Below, piece after piece: positions 58,501-63,840 of a stretch of DNA of 64,000 nucleotides (its first letter is position 1; each line of letters starts with the position of its first letter). The DNA lies in IMG/VR virus record IMGVR_UViG_3300030328_003747, positions 1 through 64,000 of that record. The stretch is one strand, 5' to 3'. The notes under the pieces were generated by a model that was given only the letters and a program-made list of their open reading frames with translations, was not told where the DNA came from and searched no databases. The stretch comes from a virus. Made by a program: the position numbers and the translations under genes.

Positions 58501-58748
58501 GTGTAAGAGAAGTTTCTGAAACTGCAAGAGAAGAACTAGACAAGAATATTCAAACTTTAAATCAAAATGAAGTTGATGACGATCAATTGCAAAGCATAAT
58601 TAATCAGGCTAAAAAATCTGTTCGATCACCTTCAACCATACAACTACCTACCGTTAAACCTTTAACAACCAATCTTAATCAAGGTAGCCTATCTAATGAT
58701 CCTAGTGTTAGGGCAGCTATTTTAACTGGCGGTCAATCAATAGTATAA
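55524..58748 (+). CDS. Large internal virion protein (phage B)
   Basis: 1074-aa helical ORF, last of the ejection block. Confidence 0.55.
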   Translation: MPIYNVQINPQHSVQVEADSEEEARAKVELDIKATAARRAAVPYLDEIMFDYETGVRDKSIRRRLAIADNPLEREGTAEKIFGKDGFTYNSRGQLAVTPAGLVRIGEEPDYITLTDGSKLLLNRIVDEDSFNLTDGDLADFTGIAGPVLGAVLALTPQARVLSLVSKLTKLFSNKPTRINRIIASGIGTGGGKGVEEFVELEMGLQMQSAEEIRNLLAFETTLGAGAQGIGELLGVGYHLLLGKNAPFDNLRLYRQATQGRNLDDVMKLDLKLGREATEKEINQAVKDGIIKVYAEKGLPSQGAFNKQLPGKVQSLAEQVLGNTRVEESKKYLLRSMTELFARLNKESVDGQSLTSLLKRYQGKTAMSPEQKGLLDKSVSAQLAKVKTSEVQTIQSIEKLFEDVMEDFTLMGINRSPITLGKVGEEIRDALQKAKAGVDKNLADKYRIVDLELRSLKEGVVNKQIGEQIVRPRLDNARKIIDDYVNTNYAARINIGDAVDVNSDPVAYLRAIIQRMDDGVENIGMEGGRDFTLVGLRNALSTLKEERRLTMSDSFLTKITDDVIKELQGIFDDMADPTILKRAAPNLNALETQKISRAADLLQDANLSAQKYLAPFDNAKLMKIKAEGKYGAYDPLEIYESAVLNGKTRDLRDIFQAVRNYDDYIKTTAPTGLKAVNELQLRNNLKQKLISDAFQDSFDAATDTVDFAKFTTYLKNFDRKSPGKLREIFANEALGSENFLRVLDQINKLKPNLKPAEITKLITQFTKSKVPGGLTETATGKAFLEGLKELAEAKSKTASFEGNLIIRKLPEATTEEVVSKIFTPQGASNIKLIRETVGEESFKEIQNNAMNKILQRAIDFDGITKKGDITKIFQADKFNNILRSYGDETLEAMFGKDIAIGLKNYGKTIDIMTRGEVGRGGAAGTLIAAAIAINAFNPALWPTIAGLAVLRTAFQTPFILKMMARTDKSAGVQLVEIFERMFRLYGLTEIGRGVREVSETAREELDKNIQTLNQNEVDDDQLQSIINQAKKSVRSPSTIQLPTVKPLTTNLNQGSLSNDPSVRAAILTGGQSIV

Positions 58749-60487
58749 ATATTAAGTTTTTTAGACTTACCTTTCACTTCTATACTGTCTAATCTTTTAA
58801 GAGGATTTTTTAATTTTGTGCCTAATAATTTAGCTGCTGTTGACTCTCCTATTAATAAATCAGTACCTACGGCTTTAGTTGCTGACTCTAATCTTGCTGC
58901 GGTATTTACAGAGTCTCCTATAGCAGTATAATCGAAGCGTGAATCGCTACCCATATTACCTACAACAGCTTGCCCAGAATTTAAACCGATACCAATTTCA
59001 ATACCTAACTTTGCTTCTTTTATGTCGTGTCTTATCTGAAGAGCTGTTTTTATAGCTAACTCTTCATGATTCTCTTGATCTAATGGTGCATTAAATATTG
59101 CCATCATCGCATCACCAATATACTTATCCACCATACCGCCATTTTTTTGAACAGCATTAGCTTGTATGGTTAAAGCTGCATTCATAATTTTTGCAACTTC
59201 TTTAGGTGGTAACACTTCTGATAAGGCAGTAAATCCTCTAACATCTGTAAATAAAAATGTGCAATATCTTTTTTCTCCACCTAGTTTTAATAACTCAGGA
59301 TTATCTTGCAATCTTTTAACTTGTCTAGGATCTAGATAATGCTCAAACTGTTTTTTAATTTGTTGGCGCAATTTATATTGTTTTCTAAAGTTTAGGTAGT
59401 AAGCCACACTAGCAGTAACGAATTCTGCTATTAAAGTGTAGCTAAAATCAATTAAAATGCCTCTATTTATCATATAAAGCCCTACAAGCCCCGTAGAGAC
59501 AAATATGCCACTACCTAATATGATAGACCAAAAAATACCAAGATATGAGCTTACAACCCAAATAAGAAAGACACAAAATCCTAAAATTAAGAATTCTGCA
59601 CCCAAGTGCCAATCTGGTATTCTTGGGCTGTCTTGAATTAGAATTGACTCAGATAATGCTGCTTGAATTTTGTGAGGTTCGAGTAAACCGACAGGAGTTG
59701 CAAGTGTTGGCATAATTCCAATTGCATTTACTCCAACAAATACAAACTTACCTTCAACATTCATTTCTTTTAATGTTGTTTCTGGTGTGTCTACCCAACT
59801 AATCCATTTCCTTCCTAGTGAGTCGGTAGGGACTGGTGGAATACCACGAACTGTTATTTCTGATATTCCATTTGCATTTGTTTTAATAATGTAAGTGTTA
59901 GATCCAGTTAAAGACTTTAATACTTGAGTACCAAAACTTGGCACCCAACCGTCTGGTATTTCATATAGTAGTGGTAATCTTCTTACCAAATTATCAACAT
60001 CAACTGGTGCAGATACTACACCCTCTAAAACAGATTCTCTTATACCTTTTATATTTGGTAGGTGTCCTGGCAACCTGATACCTGAAACATCTTCTCCTAA
60101 AATTACAGTACCAGTTGGAAGTGGGTATTTTTCGTTATCGTAAGAAAAGGTGGCAACTACTGTATTTGGGGATTTCTGAATTGCGAGAATATATTCTTCG
60201 TCGCCACCAAACCTGTCTTTATCAACAAAGCTTATTACCCATCCTACACCAATAGCACCATTTCTTACAAGATCTCTTTGAATTTCTGCTAACCTATCTC
60301 TAGGAAAAGGCCAACCCCCTTCTCTTTGCACATCCTCTTCTGTAATGTTTAAAATAACAAAATTACCTGTTGGTTCTTTTTTAGGGACCAAGTAATCAAA
60401 TGTTTTTAGTTTAAGTATTTCTAGTGGAGCAACCTGGAATATTAAAGGAAGCGCCAGTATAGCAAATATAAGTAAAAACTTTTTCAT
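58733..60487 (-). CDS. CHASE2-domain class III adenylate cyclase (copy 2)
   Basis: GGWPFPR, FTDVRGFT, DKYIGDAMMA, DYTAIGDSVNTAARLES. Confidence 0.93.
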   Translation of the reverse strand: MKKFLLIFAILALPLIFQVAPLEILKLKTFDYLVPKKEPTGNFVILNITEEDVQREGGWPFPRDRLAEIQRDLVRNGAIGVGWVISFVDKDRFGGDEEYILAIQKSPNTVVATFSYDNEKYPLPTGTVILGEDVSGIRLPGHLPNIKGIRESVLEGVVSAPVDVDNLVRRLPLLYEIPDGWVPSFGTQVLKSLTGSNTYIIKTNANGISEITVRGIPPVPTDSLGRKWISWVDTPETTLKEMNVEGKFVFVGVNAIGIMPTLATPVGLLEPHKIQAALSESILIQDSPRIPDWHLGAEFLILGFCVFLIWVVSSYLGIFWSIILGSGIFVSTGLVGLYMINRGILIDFSYTLIAEFVTASVAYYLNFRKQYKLRQQIKKQFEHYLDPRQVKRLQDNPELLKLGGEKRYCTFLFTDVRGFTALSEVLPPKEVAKIMNAALTIQANAVQKNGGMVDKYIGDAMMAIFNAPLDQENHEELAIKTALQIRHDIKEAKLGIEIGIGLNSGQAVVGNMGSDSRFDYTAIGDSVNTAARLESATKAVGTDLLIGESTAAKLLGTKLKNPLKRLDSIEVKGKSKKLNIYTID

Positions 60488-63067: not shown

Positions 63068-63509
63068 CTGTAAGTGTATTATATATTGTTAGAGTTATAT
63101 AAACACCGTCAGATGTCCAAGATATTAAATTATCGAACAAAGTAAACTCGCCTTGAGTTGCTGGATCTTCTCCAAAAAGCTGATCAACCAATTGTCTTGA
63201 TAATTGAGCGTATATCCTAGACTCGAAATTTCTTAAGAACCTGGCTAAAGTAGTGTTCTCTGCATCTCTTTCTAGTTCTTCTTGAAGGGCTTTTATTTCA
63301 GCTTCTAATGCTTCTCTCCTAGTGTACTCTTGCTGATCAATAGTAAGGTAATGAGCAGATGTGCCTACACCACTAAAAGAAGGGTTTTTAAATTGAAATT
63401 TAATTTCATCAGAGTAGAGAGGAAGTGCAAGAAGTGGGACTAAGATAATAGCACAACCTCTCTTTTGATGTCTCTTATAGTATTCTTTACTAATCTTTTC
63501 TTTGGTCAT
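63021..63509 (-). CDS. csgF: CsgF-like protein (copy 2)
   Basis: FQFKNPSFSG, FLRNFESRIYAQLSRQL. Confidence 0.85.
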   Translation of the reverse strand: MTKEKISKEYYKRHQKRGCAIILVPLLALPLYSDEIKFQFKNPSFSGVGTSAHYLTIDQQEYTRREALEAEIKALQEELERDAENTTLARFLRNFESRIYAQLSRQLVDQLFGEDPATQGEFTLFDNLISWTSDGVYITLTIYNTLTDETTEITIPIGDFGF

Positions 63510-63840
63510 CCCTGTCTGCCTTAGCTATTTTATTGCTATCAATAAGTTGTGGAACACCTAATATAGTTTTTATTAAAGTGTCCTGTCTAATAATTTCATT
63601 ATCAAGACTTCTTATTCTGTCTATTAATGCTACTAGTATACCGTGTTGTGAGTCAAGCTTTGTGCCTAGCCTTTGTTCCATAGCGGTTATTTGTTCTGCT
63701 ACTTTTTCATCAACTACATCCAGCTTGTTTTCCATTCCATCAACAATTCTCATTATCAGCTTATATATAAACCAACCTAATCCTAAAGCTGCCGCAATAG
63801 GAAATCCGACTTGTTGAATTATGGTTACTATTTCTTCCAT
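63490..63840 (-). CDS. Single-TM coiled-coil membrane protein (copy 2)
   Basis: Paralog of 1117-1467. Confidence 0.65.
   Translation of the reverse strand: MEEIVTIIQQVGFPIAAALGLGWFIYKLIMRIVDGMENKLDVVDEKVAEQITAMEQRLGTKLDSQHGILVALIDRIRSLDNEIIRQDTLIKTILGVPQLIDSNKIAKADRDDQRKD

Follow-up and report, generated by a model that had tools for sequence, protein, structure and literature searches.

The six-gene cassette at 58733-63840 (minus strand) of the window, which is the first 64,000 nucleotides of the virus record IMGVR_UViG_3300030328_003747, is very probably the native and predicted functional module of a phage, here called Y, and corresponds to a module that has already been published. This reading, in which we place high confidence as a whole, makes the similar cassette at the beginning of the window (copy 1) the orthologous module of an unrelated podovirus, X, the contig an assembly of two genomes, and purifying selection the force acting on the module. 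Copy 2 would be phage Y's own copy of the viral curli (T8SS) region of pelagiphages, which carries FecR and adenylate cyclase genes (Wittmers et al. 2022, PMC9599517; Zaragoza-Solas et al. 2020, PMC7029224), the cyclase here having a CHASE2 domain. The preliminary description put forward transfer of the cassette between unrelated phages, an idea already in print: multigene transfer across families is the main claim of PMC9599517, and transfer between phage families together with multigene selection has already been proposed (PMC9599517, PMC7029224). Because the module and its inter-family transfer are published (PMC9599517, PMC7029224, PMC9004378), the finding adds little conceptually. It contributes further carriers (a podovirus of type X and, on a related contig, a siphovirus-like phage), a new placement in which the cassette follows the ejection genes in inverted orientation, figures that show strong purifying selection on each of the six genes, and evidence that the leading gene 1 and the 158-aa neighbour swap separately from the rest of the module.

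The cassette of copy 1 recurs in the same order and in the opposite orientation as copy 2 (Table 1), and encodes a small membrane/coiled-coil protein (gene 1), CsgF, CsgG, a curlin-like solenoid, a FecR-domain protein and a CHASE2 adenylate cyclase. As previously described, the six ORFs of copy 2 are all intact and diverged from those of copy 1: identity by BLASTP is 66% for gene 1 (exactly 77/116 residues, the figure given before as approximate), 62% for CsgF, 48% for CsgG, 46% for the curlin-like protein, 54% for the FecR-domain protein and 61% for the cyclase, with E values from 1e-58 to 0, far beyond chance. Pfam content also agrees in both copies, being in order none, CsgF, CsgG, Curlin_rpt (weak), FecR, and CHASE2 with Guanylate_cyc. 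CsgE, CsgC and CsgD had no Pfam match among the six cassette genes and the ten flanking proteins scanned, and a promoter and terminator scan over 58.3-64 kb gave a signal no better than that of shuffled sequence.

Table 1. Coordinates of the cassette genes, their neighbours and the probable genome join (window positions unless stated).
Feature	Position	Strand	Evidence
DUF7936 gene upstream of copy 1	750..1088	+	92%-identical copy at 51134-51472
Module copy 1, in phage X	1117..6141	+	Pfam and BLASTP against copy 2
158-aa gene (phrog_1544), downstream of copy 1 cyclase	6150..6626	+	PHROG, sequence comparison
Tail-fibre gene across probable X/Y join	47416..50598	+	Many PHROG tail-fibre families
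90-nt tail-fibre repeat R, probable join of two genomes	48670..48759	+	98.9% identical to last 89 nt of contig plus position 1
Phage Y internal-virion/ejection genes (493, 249, 594, 1074 aa)	51505..58748	+	Homologue order in related contigs
16-nt convergent overlap	58733..58748		ORF coordinates: cyclase 58733-60487 (-), 1074-aa gene 55524-58748 (+)
Copy 2 CHASE2 sensor and class III adenylate cyclase	58733..60487	-	PF05226, 2.7e-26; PF00211, 2e-19, 70.3 bits
Copy 2 exported FecR-domain protein (predicted), acidic repeat tail	60484..61569	-	PF04773, E=2.4e-13
Copy 2 curlin-like beta-solenoid with signal peptide, putative secreted substrate	61508..62224	-	Curlin_rpt, repeat ladder, AF2 model
Copy 2 CsgG homologue, lipoprotein outer-membrane channel (predicted)	62228..63067	-	PF03783, E=3e-46, 157.7 bits, well over cutoff
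Copy 2 CsgF homologue	63021..63509	-	PF10614, E=4.8e-16, 59.5 bits, well over cutoff
Copy 2 gene 1, 116 aa, N-terminal membrane helix and coiled coil	63490..63840	-	Sequence, BLASTP
158-aa gene partner upstream of copy 2 gene 1, just outside the window	contig 64014-64487	-	95% identical

The CsgG homologue of copy 2 aligns with the E. coli CsgG structures 3X2R and 4UV3 (E=1e-40, chain residues 41-255) and holds a lipobox-like FSGC, with the lipobox cysteine present. CsgF has an N-terminal export signal and the motif F-x-F-K-N-P-S-F-S-G, and a search of its sequence against solved structures gave no match. The curlin-like protein is characterized by a periodic ladder of invariant G-x-x-N across 46 homologues; its curlin repeats (PF07012, Curlin_rpt) reach 22.1 bits in copy 2, against a cutoff of 20.7, and 16.5 bits in copy 1, which is under the cutoff. 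Its AF2 model (pLDDT 85) consists entirely of paired strands. The best VIA-align matches of the model are general beta-solenoids, with one CsgA among the top three, and the match to Pontibacter CsgA 8c50 (Z=16.2, 20% identity, rmsd 9.6) scores no differently from matches to unrelated solenoids; Foldseek against the PDB gave no match at E<=0.001. As far as these sequences indicate, CsgG and CsgF may together build a channel in the outer membrane through which the curlin-like solenoid is exported.

In the FecR-domain protein of copy 2 the only domain found is FecR itself (residues 53-136), which follows a signal-like N-terminus. A classical FecR-type anti-sigma factor was considered and rejected, since the protein has no cytoplasmic anti-sigma domain and the cassette encodes neither an ECF or other sigma factor nor a TonB-dependent receptor or transducer. 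In the cyclase, residues D415, K455, D459 and R532 are invariant across 13 phage homologues, N528 is nearly invariant and T521 is conserved in the consensus; from class III cyclases generally, we take D415/D459 to be the metal-binding Asp pair, K455/T521 the substrate Lys/Thr and N528/R532 the transition-state Asn/Arg. The exported FecR-domain protein and the cyclase could together constitute a putative envelope sensor making cAMP.

Within the module, conservation is highest for gene 1, and its copy 2 product is 95-98% identical to the homologues of phage Z (the siphovirus-like phage described below) and of contigs L006 and L009. It is present in both copies, in HTVC008M and in Melnitz, and the ESM Atlas clusters that contain it hold viruses only; a Pfam search returned no family even at E<=10. 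The small gene preceding CsgF is labelled 'histidine kinase' in PMC9599517. For the leading gene studied here this label is unsupported: there is no HisKA or HATPase_c match even at E<=10, and no conserved phospho-accepting histidine (copy 1 is without any histidine, and the single one of copy 2 is not conserved). A holin- or releasin-like identity was also set aside, the ESM Atlas leads scoring below 0.9, which is too weak.

The 16-nt convergent overlap between the cyclase and the 1074-aa gene, reported previously, is confirmed by the ORF coordinates. The same arrangement, in which the 158-aa gene is followed by the cassette and the cassette converges on the 1074-aa gene, recurs in five independent IMG/VR contigs (L006, L007, L009, L013 and L017), and for this reason the junction of copy 2 is considered native, as had been suggested. 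The cassette of Y sits downstream of the conserved 158-aa gene and faces the last ejection gene. Homologues of the ejection genes, whose PHROG matches are weak, keep their order, adjoining the cassette in Y-type contigs and following the vsp620 gene in HTVC023P-like contigs. The X-type context, composed of cassette, 158-aa gene and internal virion protein, is found in seven related contigs. The flanks of the two copies differ as described; two similar neighbour genes, the 158-aa gene (95% identical) and the DUF7936 gene (92%), had been overlooked.

Copy 2 does lie in a distinct phage backbone, as the preliminary description stated, but the limits of the backbones had been misdrawn: a backbone A of 1-36 kb plus 83-105 kb and a backbone B of 36.5-83 kb are rejected by related contigs whose collinearity runs unbroken through 36 kb and through 79-83 kb. 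Phage X occupies about 1-48.7 kb of the window (about 49 kb) and comprises copy 1 and the head module at 36.6-48.7 kb; phage Y occupies about 48.8-105 kb of the contig (about 56 kb) and comprises copy 2, the ejection genes and the head module at 83-102 kb. Six related contigs are collinear with 28-47.8 kb of the window, contig 3300010149_000035 carries the X-type cassette context together with an X-like TerL, and contigs resembling Y keep the same gene order over 73.7-94 kb. No BLASTP similarity was found between the core genes of X and Y. The TerL of X is 36% identical to that of roseophage CRP-7, and GenBank phages gave no megablast match to 36.5-58.7 kb. The head/tail module of Y is of the HTVC023P/027P kind: its genes are collinear with those of the SAR11 phage HTVC027P (identity of 61% for TerL, 48% for the portal and 66% for the capsid), with about 14 more collinear matches beyond these three. 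A PolA-based replication module is the group-defining marker of HTVC023P-type pelagiphages in PMC9599517; Y shares the head/tail collinearity of this type, but no counterpart of the PolA gene of HTVC027P was detected in it. No ORF on the contig matched the PolA, primase or helicase region of HTVC027P (tblastn, 1e-5), and Y encodes a different primase and an exonuclease VIII.

The probable join lies in a tail-fibre gene, at repeat R. The end and the start of the contig close in frame as one ORF, also of 1074 aa, and the repeat stops exactly at the contig end. A second contig, G001 (91.9 kb), fuses a 99%-identical X to the siphovirus-like phage Z, which has its own cassette, and breaks off within the tail-fibre gene, ending in fibre repeats. 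Complete X-like genomes measure 53.8-54.8 kb and hold one cassette each (one has terminal repeats), and relatives in general measure 44-61 kb, again with a single cassette. Because X has another partner in G001, X-like genomes hold one cassette and the contig ends are fibre repeat, the 105-kb contig most likely represents the complete genomes of two phages, linked through a common tail-fibre repeat, and not a duplication; most likely, the two copies stand on one contig only through this joint assembly. The assembler would have passed through the near-identical 90-nt repeat, giving a circular contig by a figure-of-eight join. Against this reading, repeat R carries one mismatch, and the order as assembled likewise yields intact fibre genes. 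A near-identical complete contig of X only or Y only was not found, the best Y-like portal being 86% identical outside a 4-kb fragment.

It is unlikely that the 105-kb circle instead exists in nature as one replicon, a co-integrate formed from two podoviruses by recombination in the tail-fibre gene and holding two head modules and two cassettes. The in-frame closure, the signs of recent exchange between X and Y, and the fact that in G001, another long contig, X is again joined to a different phage at fibre genes are all in its favour. Against it, packaging, head and replication genes are each present in two complete sets, relatives measure 44-61 kb with one cassette each, the same X has different partners in two assemblies, and fibre repeats form the very ends of both contigs, the outcome expected of repeat-induced joins. 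That the contig is one of a whole class of natural two-phage hybrids, G001 being the second, seems to us quite improbable; were it a co-integrate, one replicon would truly bear two diverged curli-cyclase modules. With two genomes per contig as the preferred reading, two IMG/VR records marked "100% complete" are flagged as probable two-genome assemblies, which bears on counts of gene copies and genome sizes.

Selection on the cassette, claimed earlier, was assessed by dN/dS and is purifying, with omega of 0.02-0.15 in the unsaturated pairs, whichever of the six genes is taken (NG86; YN00 failed on most saturated pairs). The X-Y pair is saturated (dS >1), and its dN/dS values are upper bounds. 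In the trees of genes 2 to 6, each copy stands closest to cassettes that other contigs with its own type of backbone carry, and not to the other copy. The two copies would be old orthologues maintained by purifying selection.

The view that the cassette moves as a unit holds in part. The six genes occur together and in the same order in all 47 complete instances, which are distributed in at least five contexts, but a strict unit is too simple: genes 2 to 6 follow their backbone type, whereas gene 1 and the 158-aa gene at the flank do not share that history, and the cassette of Z is a mosaic (AU tests, p=3e-8 and 6e-6, with groups picked after the trees of the other genes had been seen). Such modules would have spread by recombination among marine phages of a common host pool, with the conserved neighbours (158-aa gene, DUF7936 and SNase) as likely anchors, and exchange would also have occurred within and beside the module. 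A shared host or gene pool for X and Y, in line with the host group proposed before, is plausible because they have in common the 158-aa gene (95% identical), the DUF7936 gene (92%) and the 90-nt fibre segment (98.9%).

Independent acquisition by each phage lineage from bacterial chromosomes rather than from other phages is very unlikely. Adjacent FecR and CHASE2-cyclase genes do occur on three large alphaproteobacterial contigs, and an original alphaproteobacterial source is inferred in PMC9599517; however, among 185,579 species genomes, the chromosomes yielded such pairs and no six-gene block, the full block appearing only on short phage-like MAG-binned contigs. Moreover, the chromosomal class III cyclases, although full-length homologues, reach just 29-31% identity, with CsgF, CsgG and curlin genes all missing from their surroundings, and every phage copy includes gene 1, which is confined to viruses, and keeps one gene order. 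There is next to no probability that copy 2 arose by recent duplication and inversion of copy 1 in a single genome and diverged afterwards, despite the equal order and gene count on one contig. In agreement with the preliminary description, this reading is refuted by trees (genes 2 to 6) that group each copy with orthologues of its own backbone type; amino-acid identity of 46-66%, saturated dS and flanks that belong to different phages also speak against it.

The pelagiphage T8SS region has the same small leading gene, CsgF, CsgG, curlin-repeat protein, FecR and adenylate cyclase in the same order, and likewise is without CsgE, CsgC and CsgD. Its carriers are HTVC023P-type podoviruses and pelagimyophages, whereas X is of a different podovirus lineage and Z is siphovirus-like; copy 2 also differs in being inverted relative to the ejection genes and in having the 158-aa gene on its upstream side, and the cassettes here have a single curlin-like gene. 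BLAST also identifies all six genes, with their order unchanged, in Pelagibacter phage HTVC008M (gp012-gp019) and in Methylophilales phage Melnitz (gp98-gp104; PMC9004378), which are T4-like myoviruses with 31-41% identity and an extra gene between FecR and cyclase, annotated in Melnitz as a second curlin-repeat protein. With the E. coli curli system (CsgBAC/CsgDEFG) the module has in common the CsgG channel, a CsgF homologue and a putative solenoid substrate with Q/G-x-x-N repeats; unlike it, the phage module is without CsgE, CsgC and CsgD and combines these parts with a CHASE2 cyclase and a FecR-domain protein predicted to be exported. Relatives of this cyclase are encoded by at least 597 IMG/VR contigs.

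The virus record is a single 105,083-bp contig whose first 64 kb are the window, and PHROG scans reveal two full phage gene sets on it (see the table). Window 28-47.8 kb is collinear with six IMG/VR contigs, contig 73.7-94 kb is collinear with Y-like contigs, and one 45.7-kb contig unites the X-type cassette context with an X-like TerL. These relatives place the split near 48.7 kb: phage X is about 1-48.7 kb, with copy 1 of the six-gene cassette, and phage Y about 48.8-105 kb, with copy 2. They also rule out the backbone partition of the preliminary description. BLASTP detected no similarity between X and Y core genes. 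For X, the TerL matches the one in roseophage CRP-7 at 36% identity. Y has a head/tail module collinear with that of Pelagibacter phage HTVC027P (TerL 61%, portal 48%, capsid 66% identical), and the PolA replication block of HTVC027P has no match anywhere in Y.

Features of the contig and of the two cassettes (contig numbering, which is also that of the window)
Feature	Position	Strand	Observation
Set 1: internal virion protein, fibre, 2967-aa giant protein	7-24 kb		PHROG
Set 1: RecE-like exonuclease, DnaB helicase	24-36 kb		PHROG
Set 1: TerL, T7-like portal, capsid, fibre	38-50 kb		PHROG
Set 2: ejection-type genes	51.5-58.7 kb		PHROG
Set 2: primase, exonuclease VIII	65-70 kb		PHROG
Set 2: TerL, portal, capsid, structural protein	83-102 kb		PHROG
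Set 2: fibre gene	after 83-102 kb block		PHROG; truncated by contig end
DUF7936 gene pair	750-1088; 51134-51472		92% identical
Copy 1, six ORFs	1117-6141	+	gene 1 at 1117-1467
158-aa gene, copy 1 flank	6150-6626	+	phrog_1544; downstream of cyclase
ORF of ~47 aa	6623-6765; 93225-93367		X vs Y 93.7% nt identical
1074-aa gene	55524-58748	+	convergent with copy 2 cyclase, 16-nt overlap
Copy 2 cyclase	58733-60487	-	intact; Pfam CHASE2 and class III cyclase
Copy 2 FecR-domain protein	60484-61569	-	intact; Pfam FecR
Copy 2 gene 4, curlin-like	61508-62224	-	intact; weak Pfam Curlin_rpt match
Copy 2 CsgG	62228-63067	-	intact; Pfam CsgG
Copy 2 CsgF	63021-63509	-	intact; Pfam CsgF
Copy 2 gene 1	63490-63840	-	intact; no Pfam match
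158-aa gene, copy 2 flank	64014-64487	-	phrog_1544; upstream of gene 1

The 105-kb record is most likely two circular genomes assembled together and joined at a 90-nt tail-fibre repeat, R. When the contig is closed end to start, a single uninterrupted 1074-aa fibre ORF results. R (contig 104995-105083 plus position 1) stops exactly at the contig end and is 98.9% identical to 48670-48759, within the other fibre gene; the contig can thus be written a-R-b-R, the pattern that an assembler would produce by passing through two circles with a common repeat, and by frame arithmetic on the coordinates both fibre ORFs stay open when the joins are swapped at R. An independent IMG/VR record rated 100% complete, G001 (IMGVR_UViG_3300030372_004521, 91,881 bp, loci L170-L174), carries X at 99% identity, joined there to a third phage, Z, instead of Y, and has fibre repeats at both start and end. 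With its tape measure, HK97-type capsid and protease, phage Z resembles a siphovirus; it has its own, third cassette at G001 1645-6742. Complete X-like genomes measure 53.8-54.8 kb, one with terminal repeats, and hold one cassette each, which follows the fibre gene and precedes the 158-aa gene and, after that, the internal virion protein gene. Between the two X strains, otherwise 99% identical, a block lying between the replication genes and the small-terminase region is replaced (window 33039-36192), and the 2967-aa giant gene has an in-frame 642-nt indel (650 nt at window 18375-19024, 8 nt in G001).

The Pfam content of copy 1 matches that of copy 2, order included, and the proteins are 66%, 62%, 48%, 46%, 54% and 61% identical from gene 1 to gene 6. 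The common gene order, the intact ORFs of copy 2, the exact count of 77/116 identical residues in gene 1 and the 16-nt overlap all stand as first described. Selection on the cassette, also claimed there, is borne out by dN/dS. Between X and Y, dS exceeds 1 and synonymous sites are saturated, making omega (0.19-0.34) an upper bound only; in the unsaturated pairs L052/L074, L060/L062 and L039/L058 it is about 0.02-0.15 for all six genes, far from 1. Gene 1 is the most conserved (0.006-0.03 in close pairs).

In per-gene trees, copy 2 falls in a clade with the four Y-type cassettes (CsgF, CsgG, FecR, cyclase) and copy 1 clusters with X-type cassettes. As each groups with its own backbone type, the trees identify the copies as old orthologues tracking their backbones, not a duplication, in agreement with the earlier exclusion of a recent one. 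The proposal that the cassette moves as a unit holds for gene order, identical in 47/47 complete instances with all six genes together, but not for gene histories. The gene 1 of Y reaches 95-98% identity to its counterparts in Z and contig L006, against 54-78% for the other genes, and in the tree of the 158-aa gene X and Y pair with each other and not with their own backbone types. For groups suggested by the other genes' trees, AU tests reject Z with Y-type cassettes for CsgG (p=3e-8) and Z with X-type cassettes for the cyclase (p=6e-6). Judged by these phylogenies, cassette Z is mosaic and the cassette is not an indivisible unit.

In five independent contigs (L006, L007, L009, L013, L017) the order is primase, PDDEXK gene, 158-aa gene, cassette, the last converging on homologues of the 1074/594/249/493-aa genes and a fibre. 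This shared layout argues that, as had been supposed, the junction at 58740 occurs naturally in a phage lineage, however the full contig came about. Cyclase relatives (at least 60% identity to copy 2) occur on at least 597 IMG/VR contigs, and the cassette has at least five settings: X type; Y type; HTVC023P-like contigs (cassette, 158-aa gene, vsp620, ejection genes); cassette followed by an SNase gene and head genes; and Z type together with the T4-like myoviruses HTVC008M and Melnitz.

Annotations of the module exist in the HTVC008M and Melnitz records; PMC7029224 and PMC9004378 discuss it, and PMC9599517 describes it in full, covering FecR and the cyclase, global abundance and expression, and 'cross-family multigene transfer'. 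New here are further carrier backbones and the inverted Y-type placement, the dN/dS figures, the evidence that gene 1 and the 158-aa gene are exchanged separately, and the diagnosis of two-genome assemblies.

The 158-aa genes beside the two copies (95% identical) and the DUF7936 pair were absent from the preliminary description. Together with the small ORF and the fibre segments, these near-identical stretches point to recent DNA exchange between X and Y and hence to a shared host pool, probably SAR11-like because Y is akin to HTVC027P. The SNase-family nuclease gene downstream of the small ORF is only 73% identical in nucleotides between X and Y.

Among one genome per species from 185,579 species, every full six-gene block is on a short phage-like contig binned into a marine MAG, and the taxonomy of these MAGs is inconsistent. 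On large alphaproteobacterial contigs there are only pairs of FecR and CHASE2-cyclase genes, whose cyclases are 29-31% identical and lack a neighbouring CsgF or CsgG. The MAG labels of the cassette-bearing phage-like contigs L175-L180 and L186 (Pelagibacter, Parvibaculum, Vicingus, Neomarinimicrobiota, Maricaulis, Flavobacteriaceae) probably reflect mis-binning and hence are no host evidence.

PMC9599517 names gene 1 a histidine kinase, a label that the sequence does not support: Pfam gives no kinase domain even at E<=10, and no histidine is conserved. The gene belongs to virus-only clusters and occurs solely in viruses. CsgG carries a lipobox and can be aligned to solved E. coli CsgG structures (E=1e-40), and CsgF retains the N-terminal F-x-F-x-N-P-x-F-x-G segment. 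The gene 4 product combines a signal peptide with a G-x-x-N ladder that is periodic and invariant, and its fold is confidently predicted to be a beta-solenoid, with a CsgA among the top structural matches. The FecR-domain protein is predicted to be exported and lacks an anti-sigma domain, and the cyclase retains residues characteristic of active adenylate cyclases. On these features the likeliest reading is that an outer-membrane channel based on CsgG and CsgF would export the curlin-like protein, and would be coupled with a cAMP-producing sensor in the periplasm.
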